Shown here piece by piece: positions 2,515 through 46,598 of a DNA stretch of 64,000 bases. The translations under genes and the position numbers were made by a program. The DNA is taken from the NCBI GenBank assembly GCA_000004695.1, contig CM000151.3:384001-448000 (forward strand), read 5' to 3'. The notes under the pieces are model-generated. The model saw only the letters and a program-made list of their open reading frames with translations. It made no database searches and was not told where the DNA came from. The DNA comes from Dictyostelium discoideum (taxonomy: Eukaryota). How positions within the stretch are numbered: position 1 is the first letter of the stretch; every line of letters begins with the position of its first letter.

Positions 2515-2782
2515 TGTAATAAAGCTTGTTAGCTTTATAAATATATATAATTAATAATTATATAATTGAATAATACTTTGTTATCTTTATTTAATATTAA
2601 TTTATATTTATAATATTCAATATTGTTTATAAAATTATTCTTTAGTATTTATATTATTTATAATGAGTTGACAGTATTATTATTATTATTATTATTATAT
2701 TATTTAAATGTGTGTCAACTATAATTAGTAATGTAATATGCATATTTAATATCTATTAATTTTATAGAGTAACTTTATTACA
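2515..2782 (-). repeat. 3' LTR (268 bp) with terminal inverted repeat TGTAATAAAG...CTTTATTACA
   Basis: Near-identical to 4887-5154. It starts TG and ends CA, with the PPT adjacent on the minus strand. Confidence 0.85.
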
Positions 2783-3379
2783 TATCCCCCCCTTTTAGTT
2801 GAAAAAAATTTTTCAATCTTTTAATATAAAACACATCATGATTTTTAATATTATCCAATACTAATTTGAATTTTAAATCGCTAACTCTCTCATGTACTTT
2901 GAAAAGACCTTCCCAAGATTTATTGAGCTTTACTGGACCAACAGTGGATTGTAAATAGACATAATCTCCTACTTGAATATTTGAACGAGAAACTTTTTTA
3001 TTAATTTGTGATAATTGGTCTTTACCAAGATTATCCTTAATGAGACAAGGACGTTTGAGGTTATTATTTACAATTTGGGCGAAATTATGAGCAAAATCTA
3101 ATCTTGATAAATTTGTACATGGATTTCTTATTAATGGTTGAATTGAGGTTATTTGTGATTTAATTATTGAATTCTCTGTTTGATTTAATGATATTGATTT
3201 TAATGGTAAATTTGATGTTATTGGTGAATCTATTGGTTCTTGGAATAAGAATTCTGGAATATCGTAATCTATTGGTAGTTGTTCTTCAATAGTTGGATAC
3301 GATTTGATTGATAGTATATGATGAGAATTAAAATTTTCAATTAAATGATCAGTATCTGTTAATAATTCTGATTTTGATG

Positions 3380-3410
<31 letters not shown>

Positions 3411-4705
3411 TGAATAATCAGATACTGTTTTAAATATAGTTTGTATACATGGTTGGGTTTCTTTAGATATTAATTTGGTACCAACATTGAATTCAAGATT
3501 CTTAATGATCATTTCTTTAAAATCAATGACTAAATTTAATCCAATTATTGTATCAATGCCAAATATACAATCAATTGATGTATCATTATCTTTAACAACA
3601 TTAACTTTAACTCTAGCGAATGCTTTACCTAATTTAATTGTTGTGTTACTTATTCCAATGATTTTGATTTCATTATTTGATGCTGATTTAACAGAATATT
3701 GTTTATTTTCAATCTTTAATTTTAACTTTTTAGCAATACTTTCCCAAACAATAGTAAGTGATGAACCAGTATCAATCAAACCTCTAACATTTTTATTATT
3801 TATTAATAAAGCTGCATTCATACTATCTATTCCAATTGAATTAATTGTACTATTATTAACCATTGTAATTGCATTAGTGCTATGATTATTATATGATTGT
3901 TTATTCTCATTATAATTATTCTTTTTATCTTTAGACCAACACTCTTGAATTACATGACCTTTCTTTTTGCAATATTTACAAAATTTTGTGATTGAATTTA
4001 CTTGATTTTGTGGTGCTTTATAAGGGGATGATTGTGGTGACATTTGTGGTGATCGATTATAATATTGATTTTTAAAAATTGGTGTTGAAATTTCTTCAGA
4101 TTCAATTGATTGTTGTTCGTTTTGAGATGTAACATATTGAGGGGATGTTGCAGAATAACCAGAACCCGAACCTAGATATCTTTGATTACCAAATTCTTGC
4201 AACGTCTTTGCAACTAATTGACCAGTGTACATTGATCTACCTTTGATACGAATTGAACCATCTTCACAAGACTTTGCAATATCTATTGCTCTTTTTAATG
4301 ATTTTGGTGCACATTTTGTAATTTCAATACCCAATTCAGTACCAACAGCTGAATAAAACAATTGTATTTTAAACTTTTCTGAAATATCAACTGCTGAACA
4401 TTTTGATAGAAATTTACCAATTAATATATCTAATGTATTGTATTTATATTCTCCCAACTTTGTTAATTCTGTTAAATCATCACTATCACCAATATCAAAA
4501 GCATCTTTAAGATCTTCAATTATCTCCATTGCTGTTAAGTCTGTATCCAATGTTGCGGCATATTCCAATGCATTGTTTCTTAGTTTTCTAATAATATCAG
4601 CTTTCGATATTTCCTCGCCATGAATTAGTAAGAGTAAGTGTTTGAATTTACGAAATGATAAACCTTTTCCATCACCCGAAAAAATTACGTTTTCATTATT
4701 ACTCA

Positions 4706-4706
<1 letters not shown>
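2778..4706 (-). CDS. Gag-Pro polyprotein of the LTR element: capsid-like region, CCHC zinc knuckle, retroviral-type aspartic protease
   Basis: Contains CKYCKKKGHVIQECWSKD (Cx2Cx4Hx4C) and LIDTGSSLTIVW (the D-T/S-G active site of retropepsin). The ORF end runs through the PPT into the LTR edge. This fits an internal deletion that fuses the truncated pol to the LTR. Confidence 0.75.
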
Positions 4707-4776
<70 letters not shown>

Positions 4777-4886
4777 TATTAAATTAAATTTAATCTAATG
4801 TAAAATTTTAATTGATTGAATAATTTGATAACTTTATATTTATAGTATATTTTTTTTTTTTTTTTTTGAAAGACGATGTCGCCAAA

Positions 4887-5154
4887 TGTAATAAAGCTTG
4901 TTAGCTTTATAAATATATATAATTAATAATTATATAATTGAATAATACTTTGTTATCTTTATTTAATATTAATTTATATTTATAATATTCAATATTGTTT
5001 ATAAAATTATTCTTTAGTATTTATATTATTTATAATGAGTTGACAGTATTATTATTATTATTATTATTATATTATTTAAATGTGTGTCAACTATAATTAG
5101 TAATGTAATATGCATATTTAATATCTATTAATTTTATAGAGTAACTTTATTACA
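4887..5154 (-). repeat. 5' LTR (268 bp) of the same element
   Basis: Direct repeat of 2515-2782. A putative PBS TTTGGCGACATCGTC lies immediately internal on the minus strand (plus 4870-4886). Confidence 0.85.
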
Positions 5155-9192: not shown

Positions 9193-12354
<3,162 letters not shown>

Positions 12355-23452: not shown

Positions 23453-24254
23453 TTTATGTTTGATGATTGCGCAATCATTACTGAAAATAAAAAAAAAAAA
23501 AAAAAAAAAAAATAATTAATAAAAAAAAAAAATTAAAAAAAAAAAAATTGATTTGATATTTTTTTTTTTATTTTTTTTTTATTTTTTTAAATATACTCTT
23601 TCTTTTATATCAACCAAAAATTTAATTCAATTTTCTTAAAACTAATTCCATCGATATTAATATTTAATAAAAAAAAAAAAAATTTAAAAAATGAAAATAA
23701 TTCTTTTCGTTTATTTTTTCATTTTGTTCACAATAAATTATAAATTAATAATAATAATTATTATTTTTTTTTTTTTATTTTATTTTTTTTTTTTTTTTTT
23801 TTTTTAGAAACACACATATACTTGGTTAGATATTTTTTTTTTTTTTTAAAAAAAATTACTAGGGGTAATGATATATGAAAAAATAAAAAATGATTAAATA
23901 TTAATTTTGACCAATCAAAACAATAATTGCAATGATAAACTTTTAAATTTTAATTGGTTGGATGAAATCAATTTTTAAAGACGACCAACTCGTCAGTTTT
24001 TTTTTTTTTTTTTTTTTTTTTCATGAAATCTCGAGATATTAATTCTACAGTTCTTTGAATTCGCTAGAAGATATTATTTTTTTTCCTAAATACCTATCAT
24101 TTGCTTTCTTTTTCTTTTTCTTTTCTTTTTTTTATTTATTTTTATTTTTTTTTTTATTTTTATTTTTTATTTTAATTTTTTATTTACTTTAAAATAAAAA
24201 TTTTAAAATTATTTTTATATTTTTTATTCCTGTGTAGAAATTATAATTCTAAAA

Positions 24255-24520
24255 ATGTATTATAAAATTTTACTTATATTTGCATTATTAATTTTTGTTA
24301 ATATTAATTTTGCTTCTTCTGAATTTAAAAAAAATGGTAATAATTATTTGAAACAATTAAAATATTAAATATATAAACGATTTGCTTTACTGATATTATT
24401 TTTATTTTAAATTTTTTTTTTTTTTTTTTCTTAAAATTAGAAACTGAATCTGCGACTTTAAAATCATTATATGCTAGTTATTTAATGCAAAATAACAATA
24501 ATACTAATTATAATAATACC

Positions 24521-24578
<58 letters not shown>

Positions 24579-24738
24579 GTAATAATACTAATATTTATAA
24601 TGATTCAGTAACAAAGAATAAATGTAAAAATAAGAATGAATTGACAGTTGGTATAATTGGTGGTGGTATTGCAGGTCTTTATGCTGGTATGTAATTTATT
24701 AATGATTATTATAAAATAATTTTTTGAAGGTATTAACC

Positions 24739-24770
<32 letters not shown>

Positions 24771-26625
24771 GTATGATTTTCGATGATTTAGGTATTGATT
24801 ATACAATCTTAGAAGCCAATAAGGAAAGAGTTGGTGGAAGAGTTTATACTCATAAATTTGATGATCATAAATATTCATATACTGATCTCGGTGCTATGCG
24901 TATTCCATTAACGCCATTAATGGATAGAATTGTATCAAACCAAAATTATTCATTATTTAGTAAATTGGCAAAAGGTGGATATCAAATTCCAACTGTACCA
25001 TTTTTAATGAGTGTTAATAATGAAATTAGTTATTATAATGGTATTAGAGTTTTAAAAGGTTCCCCAGTTTTAAATCCATCCGATCCATTTAATTATAGTG
25101 ATTCAAATAATGGTGGTCCAGGAAAAGGTATTCCAGACGAGTATGCAAATCGTACAGTTGACTCTTTAATTCTCCCAGTATTTTATCAATTCATTTACAA
25201 TTTAACAGTTGATTTTGATAATGGTTTTAAACAAATGTTAAAATATGATAGCTATTCTGCAAGAGATTATTTAAAAACATTCCATAATTATCCAAATTCA
25301 GTTGTGAGTATTTAAAAAAAAAAATTAAATTTATTAAAATATATAAATATTAAATTATATTATTTTTTTTATTTATTATTAGATTGATTATATTGAAAAT
25401 TTATCAACAAATACTGGAAGATTAGATCAATCATCTATTACTGAATTATTAATGAGTGTTTTTGATTTTAGTGGAGAAAAATTCGTTTGTGTTGAAGGTG
25501 GTACAGGTCTTATTGTTAAATCAATGAGTCAAATTATAAAGAAAAAAGTTGAAATGGGTAGTTTTGTTACTAAAATTTCAAAATCATATGATAAAAAGAA
25601 TAATGAAATCGATGGATTAAATGTTGAAGTAGTAAGAGATTCAAACTTTGGTGGTAGTGATACTGAAATATTGAAATTTAAACATGTAATTAGTACTACA
25701 ACTTTACCAGCATTACAAAGAATTGATACAAGTGATTTGAAATTACCATTGAAATTAAAGGTTGCAATTCGTTCACTTAAATACACTGGTGCTATTAAAC
25801 TTGCAATTAACTTTAAATATCGTTGGTGGGAAGATAGTGAATTTATGAGTGGTAAACCAATTAGAGGTGGTTCTTCAAATACCGATCTTTTACTTCGTCA
25901 AGTTGTTTATCCATCATATGGTATCAATAATGGTACAAAAGGTGTTAGCGGAGTTTTATTAGCAAGTTATAGTGGTGGTTTGGAATCAATCAGAGTAAGT
26001 TGTGAATAACATTATTATGTTTAAAATAATTAATATTAATTTTTCTTAAATTTTATAGATTAGTAGTATGATTGGTAAAAAAGATAAAGAAAGAAAACTT
26101 TTAAATATAGTTTTAAGAGATCTTGCTGAAATCCATAATGTTGATTTAAAGAAATTAAAAAATTTATATAAAGATCATTTCTTCCAAAGTTGGGATAATG
26201 ATGAATTTGTAAGTATTAAATTTTAATAAATATTTATTTTATTTTTGAAAATATTAATAAATTTTAATTTTATTTTAAAAAAAAAAAACAAATATTAGTC
26301 ATCAGGTGCTTTTGCATTATTTTCAATATCTCAATATACTGAACTTTTCCCAAGTACTGGACAATCACATGTTGATGGTAGATTCCATTTATCAGGTGAA
26401 TTAACCTCGGTTCATCATGCATGGATGATTGGTGGACTTAATAGTGCATATAGATCAGTTGATTTAATTTTAAAGAATGAAGGATTTGAAGATTTACGTA
26501 TCAAATTAAGAAATAATTGGGGCACTATTGAGCAAGCTGAATATCCATCATTAGATTGGTATAAATACGACTCTGATATTAATCATTATAATATTCAAGG
26601 AAAATCAATTGAAAAATTATATTAA
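24255..26625 (+). CDS. Secreted flavin-containing amine oxidase / L-amino-acid-oxidase-like protein, copy 1; 6 exons
   Basis: Exons are 24255-24336, 24441-24686, 24771-25303, 25383-25994, 26059-26208 and 26299-26625. Donors are GTAATA, GTATGT, GTGAGT, GTAAGT, GTAAGT and every acceptor is AG, with consistent phases. The signal peptide is MYYKILLIFALLIFVNINFASS. Exon 2 carries a poly-Asn run. The FAD fingerprint TVGIIGGGIAGLYAG spliced onto MIFDDLGIDYTILEANKERVGGRVYT matches the LAAO/MAO GxGxxG...E..x..GGR dinucleotide-binding motif. The C-terminal GRFHLSGELTSVHHAWMIGGLNSAYRSV matches the amine-oxidase C-terminal FAD contact. Confidence 0.7.
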
Positions 26626-26750
26626 ATAAATCAAAAAATTACCTATATATTGCTAGTTTATTTTCATTCTCATTTTAAGTTTATTTTATTTATTTATTTA
26701 TTTTTATTAGAGGAATTCCTCTTTTCTTCTTAGAAATTAATTAAATTTGG

Positions 26751-26789
<39 letters not shown>

Positions 26790-26790
<1 letters not shown>

Positions 26791-27010
26791 TTTAATTGGT
26801 GATTATGTATTTTTTAAAATTTTTTGGAAGTTAAAATTAAATTTAATTTCTTTTAAATTAAAAATATAATTTAAAATTAAATTAAATATTGATTTTAATT
26901 CATCTAATTCTTTAATTATAATTTTATAATGTCTAATTGATGTTAATGGTGAAGAAAATATATTTTCAAATAAATATTGATTAATTGTGTAACAAGATCT
27001 CAAAAACATC
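26790..27010 (-). pseudogene. Fragment homologous to the 3' part of the F-box-like gene at 31978-33927, carried along with LAAO duplicate 1
   Basis: Minus ORF 26803-27009, ...INQYLFENIFSSPLTSIRHYKIIIKELDELKSIFNLILNYIFNL, is nearly identical to residues ~540-600 of the 649-aa minus-strand protein. Confidence 0.6.
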
Positions 27011-27344
27011 TTGTTAATACTAATATTTATTTAATTTCATGAAATGTTCTAAACAGAACATTTAAAAATAACTATTAATATTGAATTAATAATTCAATAT
27101 TAATTATTACTAATTTAATTTATTTTAATAAATTGTTTCATTTTATATAATAAACTCACTAAACACAACTAAATAATAATTCAAAAAAATAAATAATAAT
27201 AATTTAGAATATAGTTTTGTTTCAACATTTTATTATAACACATACAATTCAGAAAATAATAATAATTTATTTTACTGTTTTGTTTAAAGGGGTTTTCTCC
27301 CGTTGTAATAAAATTTAATTAATTTTAAATTAAATTTAATTTTC

Positions 27345-27379
<35 letters not shown>

Positions 27380-27553
27380 TTTCACAAAAAGGTTTTCATA
27401 ATAGATATTAGATACCAGATATTAAAAATGTCACACAAAATCACCATATAAAATAATAATATAAATTTAAAAATAATTTAATTAAAAAGAAAATAATAAT
27501 TAATTAGAATAAAATTAAAATAATATAATTTTGCAGTTTAAATCGGATCTAAC

Positions 27554-27680
27554 CCTATAGGCTGAGGTTGGAGTAGTTAACAGATTTGAGTTCGCTCAAA
27601 TCTGAGGACTATAAAAAGAAACTAGGTTTCTAATTCAACCTCAGTAATAAATATATACAAATAATAAAATCACGATAGGG
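27554..27680. ncRNA. Candidate structured RNA or palindromic element: nested hairpins including a perfect 10-bp stem capped by a UUCG tetraloop
   Basis: A local GC-richer island in an AT desert. cagatttgag-TTCG-ctcaaatctg is at 27581-27604. It is enclosed by ctgaggttg (27562-70) / caacctcag (27636-44) and by ccctat (27554-59) / ataggg (27675-80). A further agaaac-TAG-gtttct mini-hairpin lies at 27617-27631. No match to U1/U2/U4/U5/U6 consensus sequences that I can recall. Confidence 0.3.
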
Positions 27681-27929
27681 CTACGGTCATCACTTAAATA
27701 TATGTGTACATTTATTTCTTAAAATAATTATTTTATTAAATAATTTATTTTAAAAGGATGTCAACTAATAATAATAATAACAACAATAATAATAATGAAG
27801 ATATTGATAATGATGAATCTCAACAACAGGATAATGAGGAACAACAACTTCAACAACCACAGGTATCAACATTCAATGAACAGCAATGTCAAATAAGGGA
27901 ACAGCAGGAAAAACTAACACTGATGACAC

Positions 27930-28390
27930 TGACCACCAGTTGTTACAAATTGAAATTCGTTCGTAATGTAATTCATCATTATTATTTGAAGAGGTACTAT
28001 ATTCAATGGATATATTCATTGGTAGTGGTGGTGGTCGATGTTGTTTATTATATGAATAAAAAATAAAATCGCTATAAGTTAAATGTAAATACTTAATTGA
28101 TTTATTATTTAATAAATTTGAAAATGAATTAATATTAAATAAACCATGGCAGTCTAATTTTGTTATTTCAATTGATGTATTTAATTATGAAAATAATGGT
28201 TTAAAATAATTTGAAAACATTTCTTTACTTTGATTTATGGTCTTAATTTAATTTTTATTTTTTTTCATCATCACAGTAATCATCCGAACCATATGCACTA
28301 TCACTATGTTGTCTATAATAATGATTGTTAATCAAATCTTCTATTCTAATGTTATATTTAAAATTTTTAAAGATTTACTTGAAATTAATG
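27930..28390 (-). pseudogene. Second decayed fragment of the F-box-like gene (homologous to 32310-32770)
   Basis: High nucleotide similarity between 27930-28070 and 32310-32440, and between 28080-28390 and 32440-32770, with indels and stops. Confidence 0.6.
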
Positions 28391-28407
28391 AATTCATCAT
28401 TTCTTTT

Positions 28408-29118: not shown

Positions 29119-29394
29119 GGTAATGATATGAAAAAATGACCACTCGAAACGATAAATTAAATGGTTGGATGAAATCAATTTTAAAAGACGACCAACTTGT
29201 CAGTTTTTTTTTTTTTAATATTATGAAATCTCCAGATATTATTTCTACAGTTCTTTGAATTAATTAGAAGATTTTTTTTTTTCTATCATTTGATTCTTTT
29301 TCTTTTCTTTTTTTTATTTATTATTATTTTACTTTAAAAATTTTAAAATTATTTTTATATTTTTTATTCCTGTATAGGAATTATTATTCTAAAA

Positions 29395-31679
29395 ATGTAT
29401 AAAAAAATTTTACTTATATTTGCATTATTTATTTTAGTTAATATTAATTTTGCTTCTTCTGAATTTAAAAAAAATGGTATTAAATATTTGAAACAATAAA
29501 AATATTATATATAAAACGATTCAATTTACTGATATTATTTTTATTTTAAATTTTTTTTTTTTTAAAAATTAGAAACTGAATCTGCAAATTTAAAATCGTT
29601 ATATGCTAGTTATTTAATGAAAAATAACAATAATACTAAATATAATAATAATGATAATAGTAATAATACTAATATTTATAATGATTCAGTAACAAAGAAT
29701 AAAAGTAAAAATAAGAATGAATTGACAGTTGGTATCATTGGTGGTGGTATTGCAGGTCTATATGCTGGTATGTTATTTATTAAAAGTATGATTATTATAA
29801 AATTATTTTTTGAAGGTGTTGACTTTTTTTTTTTTTTTTTTTTTTAAATCAAGGTATGATTTTCGATGATTTAGGTATTGATTATACAATCTTAGAAGCC
29901 AATAAGGAAAGAGTTGGTGGAAGAGTTTATACTCATAAATTTGATGATCATAAATATTCATATACTGATCTCGGTGCTATGCGTATTCCATTAACGCCAT
30001 TAATGGATAGAATTGTATCAAACCAAAATTATTCATTATTTAGTAAATTGGCAAAAGGTGGATATCAAATTCCAACTGTACCATTTTTAATTAGTGTTAA
30101 TAATGAAATTAGTTATTATAATGGTATTAGAGTTTTAAAAGGTTCCCCAGTTTTAAATCCATCCGATCCATTTAATTATAGTGATTCAAATAATGGTGGT
30201 CCAGGAAAAGGTATTCCAGACGAGTATGCAAATCGTACAGTTGATTCTTTAATTCTCCCAGTATTTTATCAATTCATTAACAATTTAACAGTTGATTTTT
30301 ATAATGGTTTTAAACAAATGTTAAAATATGATAGCTATTCTGCAAGAGATTATTTAAAAACATTCCATAATTATCCAAATTCAGTTGTGAGTATTTAAAA
30401 AAAATTTAATTTAAAAAAATATATTTATATTAATATTTTTTATTATTAGATTGAATATATTGAAAATTTATCAACAATTAGTGGAAGATTAGATCAAACA
30501 TCTATCACTGAATTATTAATGAGTGTTTTTGATTTTAGTGGAGAAAAATTCGTTTGTGTTGAAGGTGGTACAGGTCTTATTGTTAAATCAATGAGTCAAA
30601 TTATAAAGAAAAAAGTTGAAATGGGTAGTTTTGTTACTAAAATTTCAAAATCATTTGATAAAAAGAATAATGAAATCGATGGATTAAATGTTGAAGTAGT
30701 AAGAGATTCAAACTTTGGTGGTAGTGATACTGAAATATTGAAATTTAAACATGTAATTAGTACTACAACTTTACCAGCATTACAAAGAATTGATACAAGT
30801 GATTTGAAATTACCATTGAAATTAAAGGTTGCAATTCGTTCACTCAAATACACTGGTGCTATTAAACTTGCAATTAACTTTAAATATCGTTGGTGGGAAG
30901 ATAGTGAATTTATGAGTGGTAAACCAATTAGAGGTGGTTCTTCAAATACCGATCTTTTACTTCGTCAAGTTGTTTATCCATCATATGGTATCAATAATGG
31001 TACAAAAGGTGTCAGCGGAGTTTTATTAGCAAGTTATAGTGGTGGTTTGGAATCAATCAGAGTAAGTTGTAAATAACATTGATTAAGTTTAAAATAATTT
31101 AATATTAATCAAATTAATTTTTCTTAAATTTTATAGATTAGTAGTATGATTGGTAAAAAAGATAAAGAAAGAAAACTTTTAAATATAGTTTTAAGAGATC
31201 TTGCTGAAATCCATAATGTTGATTTAAAGAAATTAAAAAATTTATATAAAGATCATTTCTTCCAAAGTTGGGATAATGATGAATTTGTAAGTATTAAATT
31301 TTAATAAATATTTATTTTATTTTTGAAAATATTAATAAATTTTATTTTTATTTTAAAAAAAAAAAACAAATATTAGTCATCAGGTGCTTTTGCATTATTT
31401 TCAACATCTCAATATACTGAACTTTTCCCAAGTACTGGACAATCACATGTTGATGGTAGATTCCATTTATCAGGTGAATTAACCTCGGTTCATCATGCAT
31501 GGATGATTGGTGGACTTAATAGTGCATATAGATCAGTTGATTTAATTTTAAAGAATGAAGGATTTGAAGATTTACGTATCAAATTAAGAAATAATTGGGG
31601 TACTATTGAACAAGCTGAATATCCATCATTAGATTGGTATAAATACGACTCTGATATTAATCATTATAAATTATATTAA
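29395..31679 (+). CDS. Secreted flavin amine oxidase / LAAO-like protein, copy 2 (tandem duplicate); 6 exons
   Basis: Exons are 29395-29476, 29573-29767, 29854-30386, 30450-31061, 31137-31286 and 31377-31679. Intron positions are identical to copy 1 and coding identity is near-complete. Differences: a shorter poly-Asn tract in exon 2, a 24-nt in-frame deletion at the C-terminus (...INHYKLY* versus ...INHYNIQGKSIEKLY*), and a few substitutions such as M>I and Y>F. Confidence 0.7.
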
Positions 31680-31977
31680 ATAAATCAAAAAATTACCTAT
31701 ATATTGCTCGTATATTTTAAGTTTATTTTATTTATTTATTTATTAAAGGAATTTTATTTTTCTTTTCTTCATAGCAATTAAATAAATTTATTAAAACTAC
31801 AAAAGTTATATAGAAAATAAAAAAATAAAAGTAAAAAAAAAGAGGCGACAAACCCAGCGCCGCATAAAATTACTTTTCACCACTTTAATGCTGAAATTTT
31901 TACATCCATGTGTTTTTTTTTTTTTTTTATTATCGAAGAAATTTATTTATAGTAATAAAATAAATTCGGATTATTAT

Positions 31978-33927
31978 TTAATTGGTGAGTATGTATTTTT
32001 TAAAATTTTTTTGAAATCCCAAATTAACTTTGATTTCTTTCAAATTTATGTTGATATTTGTTGGTTTTTGTTGTTGCGTTTGAATTATAATATTATTTAT
32101 TAAATTATCATATTCATTTTTAAAATCATTAATTGGTATTTTAGTATTTTTGATATATAATACTATTGAATATAATTGTAAATTAAAAATATTATTTAAA
32201 ATTAATTTAAATATTGATTTTAATTCATCTAATTCTTTAATTTTACTTTTATAATGTCTAATTGATGTTAATGGTGAAGAAAATATATTTTCAAATAAAT
32301 ATTGATTAATTGAAATTCGTTCGTAATGAAATTCATCATTATTTAAATAAGTATTAAACGTATTTTTTTTCGTTGGTATTGGTGGCGGTGGTTGATATTG
32401 TTTATTATAAGAATAAAAAATAAAATCACTATCAGTTAAAATTAAATATTTAAGTGATTTATTTTTTAATAAATTCGAAAATGTATTGATATTAAATAAA
32501 CCATGACAGTCTAATTTTATTCTTTCAATTGATGTATTTAATTCTGAAAATAGTGGTTTAAAATAATTTGAAAACATTTCTTTACTTTGATTTATGGTTT
32601 TAATTAAATTTTTATTTTTTTCATCATTATAGTAATCATATGAACCACTATCACCATGCTGTCTATAATAATGGAATTTAATTATATCTTCAATATTTTC
32701 ATTACATAATGTTATATTTAAAAATTTTAAAGATTTACTTGAAATTAATGAATTAACCATTTCTTTTAAATTGGAGTTTACATTTTCTGAATGATATTCA
32801 AAATTAAATGAATTAGTTCCAATTTCATTAAATATATCTGATAATATTGAAACTGGTTTAATTGGTATTTTGATTGTATGTAAATTTTGAAATTCACCCA
32901 CTTTTATTAAATTACGAGGTTCAACGAAATCAATATCACCACTATATACTTTAATTGATTCAACTTGTTGGCCTGAATAAACTGGATTGAATAATGTTGA
33001 ATAATTGACATGTGTTTCTAAACTACAATTAATAAAATTTATATTTTTAAATTTGAAATAATTTAATACCTCGAATGAATCCTCATCATAATCATTTTCA
33101 CTTCTAGGTCCATTAATAACTATATTATTAAAACTTAATTCTGTTTGATGATTATTATAGCTTTTATTTATAATATTTTTAATACCATTAATGGTATCTT
33201 CAAGAAGCTCATTTCTAATTTCCATCTCTCTAATATTTAATTCTAAAATTTCAAATAACTTGTATAGTTTATCTTTTTGTTCTTTCGTCATTGTTGATAC
33301 ATATTTAAATATTTCAAATAAAATATCTTGTTTTTTGTCCCCATTTTCATCATAATCTAATACTTCGAAATTAACTAAAATTCTATTATAAATTAATTGA
33401 CCATTTTCAAACTGATTATGAATCGCCTTAAAATCATCAATTGTAATATTATGAAAAAATAAATTCAAACTAAAATAATCATTAATTATCGATTCTTTAA
33501 TTTTAATTATTGAAAATTCATTATTATAATTAATTTTATATAATTTCCTTCTACCATCTTCAAATGTTGAATTAAATATATTATTTTTATTATACTGATT
33601 TTCTTCTTTATTATATATAATATCATTTTTATTAAGGAATGATTCTTTAAAATAATTAATTTTTAACCAATGTTTAAATGATTTATTATTAATAATATTA
33701 TTTGAAATTATTAATGATATAAAATTAAACCATTTTTTTGAAACTAATATATAATTTAATAATTCGTTTCTATTTTTAAAAAATTTAATAAATTTAAATT
33801 GGTTATTATTTTTATTTTTATTACTTTTTAATAAATAATCAATAATTAATTTTAAAATTTCAAAATCAATTATATCTTGAAATATTTTAAAATTATTATC
33901 AACTTTAATTTTTTCAATTGATGACAT
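31978..33927 (-). CDS. Hypothetical 649-aa protein with an F-box-like N-terminus (IFQDIIDFEILKLIIDYLL) and a long Asn/Ile/Lys-rich body; source of the duplicated fragments
   Basis: Single long minus-strand ORF with ATG at 33927. Fragments of it recur at 26790-27010 and 27930-28390. Confidence 0.55.
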   Translation of the reverse strand: MSSIEKIKVDNNFKIFQDIIDFEILKLIIDYLLKSNKNKNNNQFKFIKFFKNRNELLNYILVSKKWFNFISLIISNNIINNKSFKHWLKINYFKESFLNKNDIIYNKEENQYNKNNIFNSTFEDGRRKLYKINYNNEFSIIKIKESIINDYFSLNLFFHNITIDDFKAIHNQFENGQLIYNRILVNFEVLDYDENGDKKQDILFEIFKYVSTMTKEQKDKLYKLFEILELNIREMEIRNELLEDTINGIKNIINKSYNNHQTELSFNNIVINGPRSENDYDEDSFEVLNYFKFKNINFINCSLETHVNYSTLFNPVYSGQQVESIKVYSGDIDFVEPRNLIKVGEFQNLHTIKIPIKPVSILSDIFNEIGTNSFNFEYHSENVNSNLKEMVNSLISSKSLKFLNITLCNENIEDIIKFHYYRQHGDSGSYDYYNDEKNKNLIKTINQSKEMFSNYFKPLFSELNTSIERIKLDCHGLFNINTFSNLLKNKSLKYLILTDSDFIFYSYNKQYQPPPPIPTKKNTFNTYLNNDEFHYERISINQYLFENIFSSPLTSIRHYKSKIKELDELKSIFKLILNNIFNLQLYSIVLYIKNTKIPINDFKNEYDNLINNIIIQTQQQKPTNININLKEIKVNLGFQKNFKKYILTN

Positions 33928-46035: not shown

Positions 46036-46353
46036 ATGAGAAGAAGAGGACCAATGAGAAGAGGACCAGTTATAGTTGCACCAAGAAGGGGTGTAGGTTT
46101 AGGTACATTAGCAGCTGGTGTTGGTGTTGGTATGTTAGCATCAAGTGCTTCACGTCCCCATTATGCACCTCCACCACCACCACCACCACAACAAGTAATT
46201 CATACATATCAACAACTACCTCCACAAGTAATTGTTCAACAACCAGGAGTTCAACCTCAAATGATATTCGATCCAGCAACAGGACAATACTATCAAGTTG
46301 CTCAACCACCTATTGTTCAAACTACAACTGTCCAAAATCCTTATGGATATTAA
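46036..46353 (+). CDS. Small (105 aa) Arg/Gly N-terminal, Pro/Gln-rich protein, hypothetical
   Basis: GC-richer, codon-biased ORF: MRRRGPMRRGPVIVAPRRGVGLGTLAAGVGVGMLASSA...PPPPPPPQQVIHTYQQLPPQVIVQQPGVQPQ... Confidence 0.4.
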   Translation: MRRRGPMRRGPVIVAPRRGVGLGTLAAGVGVGMLASSASRPHYAPPPPPPPQQVIHTYQQLPPQVIVQQPGVQPQMIFDPATGQYYQVAQPPIVQTTTVQNPYGY

Positions 46354-46598
46354 ACAAATTTGAACAAAACTAAATAATAATAATAATAATAATAGTAATA
46401 AAAAAAAAAAATTAAAAAAATTAAAAATTAAAAATTAAATCAAAATCTGCAAATTAATAAATAAATAAATAATAAATATTTTTAAAAAATTAAAATTTAT
46501 ATATATTTATATTTTTTTTTTTGTTTTAATACTTAAAAAATAAAAGAAAAAAATATATAATTTATTATTATTATCTAAGTTTTTTTTTTTTTTTTTTT

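Follow-up and report, generated by a model that had tools for sequence, protein, structure and literature searches.

Described systems and the locus under study

Leaders of retroviruses and long terminal repeat (LTR) elements provide one point of comparison for the sequence described here, a folded, GC-richer island inside a low-copy mobile element in 64 kb of Dictyostelium discoideum DNA (contig CM000151.3, positions 384,001 to 448,000 of the forward strand; hereafter the window, within which all coordinates are given unless prefixed L00x). HIV-1 carries the TAR and poly(A) hairpins in its leader, and in Ty1 the GAG frame starts inside the LTR. Tdd-4, a D. discoideum transposon of the Ginger2 type, has TG...CA ends. 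Points of comparison in D. discoideum itself include the DNA transposon thug-S, which has a conserved intronic hairpin that yields Dicer-dependent small RNAs (PMC4894637), and Skipper, the LTRs of which measure 390 bp in Skipper-1 and 208 bp in Skipper-2 (PMC5006619). Tdd-4 and Tdd-5 make 5-bp duplications and possess terminal inverted repeats of 145-297 bp together with an integrase-like gene (PMC2836005).

The island in the window belongs to a 960-bp, internally deleted copy of an element that is about 1.2 kb long elsewhere, and the same predicted fold is found at the same internal position in all four copies compared. The hairpin is explained here, with moderate confidence, as a conserved structured module of this low-copy ~1.2-kb mobile element, where it would serve as a cis-acting leader RNA in an integrase-type unit. 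A free-standing structured RNA gene, the reading first invited by such an island, proves to be a false lead and is removed. D. discoideum models transposon control by RNA interference, and the folded module may be regarded as a candidate cis-acting replication signal or Dicer entry point, two roles that existing small-RNA and RNA-seq data could directly test.

A 960-bp insertion that contains the fold

The first-pass annotation of this DNA placed the island in an AT-rich spacer between duplicated blocks; it lies instead within a 960-bp insertion in one of the blocks themselves (copy A). The duplication is a tandem segmental one of ~5.1 kb, in which 24154-26987 corresponds to 29294-32312 and 27948-28407 to 32308-32767, with copies 85-96% identical that carry an amine-oxidase gene and the 3' part of a 649-aa family gene. 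The flanking blocks abut in copy B, whereas 960 bp separate them in copy A. These 960 bp are an insertion because the site is empty both at the paralogous copy B (about 32297) and at L001, and because the segment has a 5-bp duplication and an 8-bp inverted repeat. L001 is the orthologous locus of another D. discoideum strain (GCA_054859385.1), a single-copy locus without the element and without the segmental duplication. The termini form a perfect 8-bp inverted repeat of the TG...CA type. With slashes at the junctions, the filled site reads ...GATTAATTG/TGTAACAAG...GTTGTTACA/AATTGAAATTCG, the right junction also being written CAGTTGTTACA/AATTGAAATTCG, and the empty site in copy B and L001 reads ...GATTAATTGAAATTCG. 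The hairpin occupies positions 547-712 of the insertion.

Copy B retains an intact 649-aa open reading frame (ORF; 31978-33927, minus strand) from a large D. discoideum gene family, and copy A holds its 3' part only; an exact look-up of the 649-aa ORF and of AX4 protein P0092 returned no record. The window copy of the element is a degenerate insertion in a pseudogene. A reading of the element as a minus-strand intron of the host gene was rejected: 17 nt would be left over, breaking the frame, and the host gene is in any case present here as a truncated pseudogene. Over 20.5 kb, assembly GCA_054883475.1 (contig JBTAPE010000001.1) matches the window apart from homopolymer lengths and five substitutions.

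A three-way-junction fold beyond chance

The nested hairpin reported by the first-pass annotation is present. The + strand RNA of 27540-27700 folds at -46.4 kcal/mol, compared with -24.9 +/- 3.8 kcal/mol for dinucleotide shuffles (n=200), not one of which did as well (0/200; z = -5.7). The minus strand gives -40.7 kcal/mol (z = -4.35). The same annotation judged the complementarity too extensive for chance, and here too the calculations agree: the 91-nt core (27558-27648, + strand) reaches -38.4 kcal/mol with z = -7.6, its minimum-energy structure accounts for 56% of the ensemble, and the locus ranks first for GC-corrected excess stability, obtained by regression on GC content, among 6388 overlapping 130-nt windows covering both strands of the 64 kb. 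The core folds at -32.2 kcal/mol on the minus strand, so that the + strand is 6 kcal/mol better. Several further top-ranked over-structured windows lie in the same 960-bp stretch, and those at 27042..27109 are among the most over-structured of the 64 kb. The second most over-structured stretch, 46200-46400 on the minus strand (z = -3.6), is in Q-rich coding sequence and looks unrelated.

The layout of the stems stands only in part. The 10-bp stem capped by UUCG was correctly drawn, but the structure is a three-way junction and not a single nested hairpin: what had been described as a 9-bp stem is the helix P1 of 12 bp, the supposed outer stem of 6 bp belongs to an interrupted helix of 12 bp, and the P3 arm had been missed (Table 1).

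Copies of the element

An exhaustive phmmer search with the 63 in-element codons of the element's ORF against 1.84 billion representatives retrieved four short proteins only and no Gag-Pol. P0093 and P0094, which share the N-terminus of the ORF, led to the copies at L007 and L008, loci of the same genome as the window; L006, with a diverged left-end fragment, comes from another strain. The full copies at L007 and L008a are 90-94% identical. The window and L007 share the ends TGTAACAA...TTGTTACA, and L008a and L008c have this same right end. In the rearranged copy (L008:9441-10489), the last ~190 bp (10489-10299) are inverted, with 132 bp of other sequence between. The 5-bp duplications differ per insertion (AATTG in the window, AGTTT at L007, CATAT at L008a), and because these are three independent duplications the family is a bona fide mobile one. 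Further copies with target duplications, a prospect raised by the first-pass annotation for the hairpin, are thus found for the larger ~1.2-kb element.

The family is sparse in the material covered. The 64-kb window contains no second copy, and L003-L006, sampled as transposon-rich loci via DGLT-A-like proteins, contain no full copies, only the L006 left-end fragment. Two parts of the hairpin, used as exact patterns to scan collections of metagenomes and prokaryotic genomes, gave no match, and a full-text literature search with the hairpin and end sequences returned unrelated primers only. A covariance model of the core, run on ~215 kb of DNA, matched only the four copies compared below, and in that DNA the hairpin never stands alone.

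From left to right, the element consists of three palindromes, an AT-rich part with an A-run, an island of ~160 nt with AAUAAA, an AT-rich spacer and the ORF, the gap from island to ORF being about 110-200 nt. Two losses distinguish the window copy from the full copies, one of an 85-bp AT-rich stretch near 27730 and the other of 161 bp at 27906/27907. A search for LTR-LTR substructure in the 960 bp was negative, the halves being dissimilar (z about 1.5), and an internal TGTAATAAA after AAAGGGG (about 27285-27312), which resembles a polypurine tract followed by an LTR start, was treated as chance.

Table 1. Positions of the insertion, its folded island, its other features and related copies
Feature	Position	Strand	Remarks
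Host target, truncated 3' gene part (copy A), split by the element	26803..28407	-	
Left target-site duplication AATTG	26983..26987	.	filled versus empty site comparison
Mobile-element copy, 960 bp, internally deleted	26988..27947	+	ends 5'-TGTAACAA...TTGTTACA-3'
Right target-site duplication AATTG	27948..27952	.	
Left-end terminal palindrome TAACAAGAT / ATCTTGTTA	26990..27016	+	9 bp, 9-nt loop; kept in L007, partly deleted in L008a
Subterminal palindrome AAATGTTCT-AAAC-AGAACATTT	27042-27063	+	conserved in other copies
Subterminal AT-rich palindrome, 20-nt arms	27069-27109	+	conserved in other copies
Poly(A) run in element	27345..27373	+	length varies between copies and assemblies
Structured GC-richer island	27536..27699	+	outer helices enclose Y-shaped core and 29-nt A/U-rich single strand
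Outermost A/U helix, 6 bp	27536-27541 with 27694-27699	+	
Closing interrupted helix, 12 bp	27546-27558 with 27675-27688	+	spans 29-nt A/U-rich strand
Y-shaped three-way-junction core	27561..27645	+	P1 12 bp, P2 6 + 10 bp, P3 6 bp
P1, 12 bp	27561-27572 with 27634-27645	+	
P2, 6 + 10 bp	27573-27590 with 27595-27612	+	capped by UUCG
P2 tetraloop	27591..27594	+	TTCG in window copy
P3, 6 bp, AGAAAC-UAG-GUUUCU	27617-27622 with 27626-27631	+	
AAUAAA	27646-27651	+	in A/U-rich strand directly 3' of core
Element ORF MSTNNN...EDIDNDELQQQ...	27758..27947	+	open through right end
Full copy	L007:9164-10326		1163 bp; ends TGTAACAAGATC...CAGTTGTTACA, duplication AGTTT
Full copy L008a	L008:3715-4911		about 1197 bp; 6-bp deletion in left end, duplication CATAT
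Rearranged copy	L008:9441-10489		body 9441-10166, 5' truncated at about position 316
Diverged left-end fragment	L006:20668-20800		76% identity; other strain

Conservation of the fold across copies

Conservation was assessed in four copies, namely those of the window and L007, L008a and the rearranged copy, L008b. Each is predicted to adopt the identical fold, at -34.2 to -38.4 kcal/mol and with z between -6.6 and -8.2. Pairing is retained throughout, with 48 of the 52 pairs invariant, one A-U changed to G-U and three pairs broken in one copy each, so that 98.6% of pair cells are paired. Of the 34 core pairs 31 are invariant, as is every one of the 12 pairs in the helix 27546-27558/27675-27688. 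Variable sites, counted in the three full-length-comparable copies, fall at 3 of 103 paired island positions versus 11 of 63 unpaired ones (Fisher p = 0.002). The + strand has six conserved G-U pairs, versus one A-C apposition.

The tetraloop behaves differently from the stems. The window and L007 have TTCG, L008a has TCTG, and CGAA stands in L008b, where the loop (L008 9751-9754) is the exact reverse complement of TTCG between identical stems. The stress that the first-pass annotation laid on an ultra-stable UUCG cap is therefore misplaced: the loop is kept in only two of the four copies, and because it is not conserved its stability is incidental.

A proposed leader RNA in a probable integrase-type element

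Because its TG...CA ends, 8-bp repeat and 5-bp duplications match the products of retroviral-type integrases, the unit may be classed as a solo-LTR-like or a non-autonomous integrase-mobilised element. Assignment to the integrase type, in either of these forms, is part of the favoured explanation and shares its moderate confidence. Solo LTRs of D. discoideum Ty3/gypsy elements such as DGLT-A/H3R and Skipper likewise have TG...CA ends with a short inverted repeat and no transposase gene, and the order of parts in the element, AT-rich and promoter-like first and structured next, resembles a U3-R-U5 arrangement, although more than 100 ORF codons would then lie within the LTR. The arrangement also recalls retroviral leaders, in that the hairpin lies between a promoter-like part and a start codon, AAUAAA lies 3' of the core and the ORF reads outward; sequence or structural homology to those leaders is absent, however, and the only hint of reverse transcription is an ambiguous intron-like deletion, described below.

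According to this explanation, the island would be transcribed on the + strand as a 5' leader (R/U5-like) of the element's own RNA, placed between the presumed promoter in the AT-rich part and the ORF. Downstream of the island, the strand with the better fold also carries the conserved ORF. The folded island RNA may then have a cis-acting role, for example in transcript stability, in strand transfer or packaging during copying, or in translational control, and selection on the propagating lineage would preserve the stems and let the loop and linkers drift. Were the unit LTR-like, the island plus AAUAAA would correspond to an R-type hairpin and the start of the ORF would fall in U5, as in Ty1.

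A number of observations weigh against a leader RNA. The copies compared are four and related by descent. Elsewhere in the element, variation affects 46 of 739 positions (6.2%), a value not significantly different from the 2.9% of the stems (p = 0.26), and the AT-rich left part, at 3.5%, shows that the stems are not better conserved than their AT-rich surroundings. The 52 pairs contain no compensatory both-sides changes in the four copies, and because of this RNA pairing is not provable versus plain conservation of sequence. The asymmetry in favour of G-U pairs is a mere lean towards a + strand RNA (two-sided p about 0.125), and the flip of the L008b loop is a DNA-level event typical of palindromes or palindrome-mediated inversion. 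The element's transcript, with its start and poly(A) sites, is inferred. As an LTR the unit would be unusual in length: its 1163 bp are four times the 268 bp of the DGLT-A LTR in the window and three to five times the length of Skipper LTRs. Finally, the ~215 kb contain no autonomous partner and no full-length element in which two such units in direct orientation flank gag-pol with a primer-binding site and a polypurine tract.

Alternative explanations

A less probable alternative is that the hairpin is processed by the Dicer machinery (DrnB/RbdB) to microRNA (miRNA)-like or small interfering RNA species, as happens with the intron hairpin of thug-S. The 85-nt core lies within the range of amoebozoan pre-miRNAs, which are mostly 75-125 nt (PMC11014262), its arms are conserved around a variable loop, and the + strand tolerates G-U pairs. 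Against this, the fold is branched, with a 21-nt insertion (the P3 arm and linkers) in the 3' arm between P2 and P1, and because these interrupt the arm there is no uninterrupted 21-bp duplex; the tight 4-nt loop is also atypical. None of the published miRNAs in Table 2 of PMC4894637 occurs in the window. Five arm substrings and one loop-spanning substring are absent from the text supplements of PMC11014262 and PMC6161686, incomplete files from which the mir-1176 control is absent as well. The AX2/AX4-type strains of several small-RNA studies carry the element, and none of these studies reports the hairpin in the portions of text examined.

A role at the level of DNA is similarly doubtful. The palindrome might be a site for a protein dimer, an intermediate of transposition or replication, or a structure that maintains itself without any RNA function. 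The element is rich in palindromes, with three at its left end, the fold of 27540-27700 is equally significant under DNA parameters (z = -5.7), the change from TTCG to CGAA is a signature of hairpin- or cruciform-mediated inversion, and compensatory changes are lacking. Conversely, the six conserved appositions would, as G-T, weaken a DNA hairpin and favour a + strand RNA, and a three-way junction whose long-range closing helix spans 29 nt of A/U-rich strand is a shape more typical of an RNA domain than of a palindrome bound by protein.

An independent small non-coding RNA (ncRNA) gene, small nucleolar RNA (snoRNA)-like or other, and present as a host gene or as a passenger of the element, is very improbable. 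In the AT-rich intergenic DNA of Dictyostelium, GC-richer islands often correspond to ncRNA genes, and the minus strand shows GUGAUGA beside the outer helix and CCGA with complementary UUUAA/UUAAA at the other end. No Rfam family matches the island at the gathering or a permissive threshold (E up to 10), however, and within the 215 kb given to the covariance model the island exists only inside element copies. No CCCAYAA upstream element was seen by eye on either side. The snoRNA-like character proposed by the first-pass annotation fails on the same Rfam result and on the presence of the minus-strand GUGAUGA in the window copy alone: the other three copies have UUAAUGA or UUGAUGA as the C box, and the D-like box is CCGA, not CUGA, so that a box C/D snoRNA was rejected. 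The hammerhead reading was discarded too, since CUGAGGA and GAAAC are present but not placed around the junction as a CUGANGA...GAAA core demands, and no Rfam ribozyme matches at E up to 10. For H/ACA, vault and RNA polymerase III box readings the motifs are unfit and Rfam gives no match. On the whole window, ARAGORN found only tRNA-Val at 2412-2486.

The last alternative, that the hairpin itself is the palindromic remnant of a miniature inverted-repeat transposable element (MITE), draws on its inverted-repeat arms and transposon-like context but is refuted by the four-copy alignment, with no target duplication flanking the hairpin and the same internal position, between flanks conserved on both sides, in every copy. 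Of this proposal in the first-pass annotation, the transposon context survives; the arms are not terminal inverted repeats, and the mobile unit is the 960-bp insertion. Inverted repeats, a target duplication and multiple copies are features of the 0.96-1.2-kb unit. MITEs are typically under about 600-800 bp and have no coding capacity. The element is not a typical MITE because it measures 960-1197 bp and has a conserved ORF of 108-116 codons.

Comparison with D. discoideum transposon families

The ends of the element match those of the DGLT-A LTRs in the window (TGTAATAA...TTATTACA; TGTAATAAAG...CTTTATTACA) at 7 of 8 positions. The five DGLT-A insertions examined have 4-bp duplications, whereas the element makes 5-bp ones, as does the Skipper-like element in L006. 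No similarity to DGLT-A or Skipper-like LTRs was found beyond the terminal 8 nt. Tdd-4 and Tdd-5 share the 5-bp duplication with the element but differ in their long inverted repeats and integrase gene, the element having 8 complementary bp at its ends and a short domain-less ORF.

Thug-S is small and multi-copy, with a small ORF and a conserved hairpin, as is the element. Its hairpin is a long near-perfect inverted repeat in an intron, whereas that of the element is a branched Y upstream of the ORF. The published thug-S miRNA sequences (AUUAAUUUCGGCAGCCAUAUU / UAUGGCUGCUGAAAUUAAUGUGG) are absent, at up to 4 mismatches, from the window and all element copies. In L007 and L008 the thug-S miRNA matches lie outside the element copies only (L007 1951-4607), and BLAST of the element versus the L007 region with thug-S-type hairpins gave no match.

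Matches to the thug-S miRNA pair, with one mismatch, occur at L007 1951-2067, 3741-3890 and 4583-4607, a few kb from the L007 copy. A gene with an integrase-core match adjoins these thug-S-type hairpins, and the region appears to be a transposon cluster.

By sequence comparison, the family is unmatched by the D. discoideum families considered (DGLT-A, Skipper and the thug-S hairpin); it may already have a name, as it is set apart from these three only. A more speculative proposal, and an unlikely one, is that it represents an uncatalogued family moving via an RNA copy, in which the Y-shaped hairpin would be either an R-like cis element or a second, branched small-RNA precursor beside that of thug-S.

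The element ORF and the annotated gene models

In the full copies, the ORF reaches the right end after 108-116 codons without meeting a stop. L007 and L008a differ in it by 5 synonymous and 3 non-synonymous substitutions and by indels that all preserve the frame; these indels and the 5:3 ratio suggest a real coding sequence. No Pfam domain was detected in the ORF. A word-indexed protein search with a 51-aa Q/N-rich query from it gave no candidate, a negative that is uninformative because the search also missed the identical annotated self-protein in the collection, which phmmer did retrieve; negatives from this method are unreliable for short, low-complexity queries.

The window ORF is shortened and frame-shifted by the 161-bp deletion at 27906/27907 and by chance reads on to a stop at 28064-28066. 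The resulting ORF of 102 aa begins within the element and has the same sequence as AX4 protein DDB_G0271474, and ACTFIT_002117, from the newer annotation, is a 111-aa spliced gene with the same ATG and a predicted intron at 27963-28078 (the models span 27758-28209). Because they run from the element ORF into antisense pseudogene sequence, both are probably artefacts, spurious chimeric models that join a transposon ORF to an antisense pseudogene. NCBI does not list AX4 DDB_G0271474 as a transposon gene but gives it simply as a hypothetical protein; genes of thug-S carry a _TE tag (PMC12405889).

The 161-bp deletion itself removes CAG and a segment that starts with GTAATAG and ends with CATTAG. 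If one (CAG)n unit slipped, the deleted segment is a GT...AG-bounded 158 bp (L007 10127-10284), and the same GT is used as a splice donor by the gene predictor in L008 (P0093). Its composition is coding-like, not intron-like. The loss might be a trace of splicing before insertion or a coincidence, and with an ambiguous alignment it is only a lead; a precise intron loss, if true, would point to an RNA intermediate.

Other elements in the window and sampled loci

The window also contains an internally deleted DGLT-A-type LTR retrotransposon (2515-5154, minus strand), with two 268-bp LTRs that are 100% identical, the primer-binding site TTTGGCGACATCG, the polypurine tract AAAAGGGGGGGATA and ACGG as its 4-bp duplication. 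The element lies 29 bp upstream of tRNA-Val(AAC), which occupies 2412-2486, and its 642-aa ORF encodes a zinc knuckle, a protease and the C-terminal part of an integrase without a reverse transcriptase, with 97% identity to AX4 DDB_G0279931. Just downstream of the tRNA-Val gene is a perfect 48-bp direct repeat (2242-2289 / 2311-2358).

At L006 988-7827 there is a full-length Skipper-like LTR retrotransposon with 100% identical 367-bp LTRs, the duplication AATTT and the ends TGTAAAAG...TCTAACA. L003 195-7708 consists of three tandem ~2.75-kb units, 98-99.6% identical and each with a 444-aa gene, which adjoin a reverse-transcriptase gene and a DGLT-A-type element.

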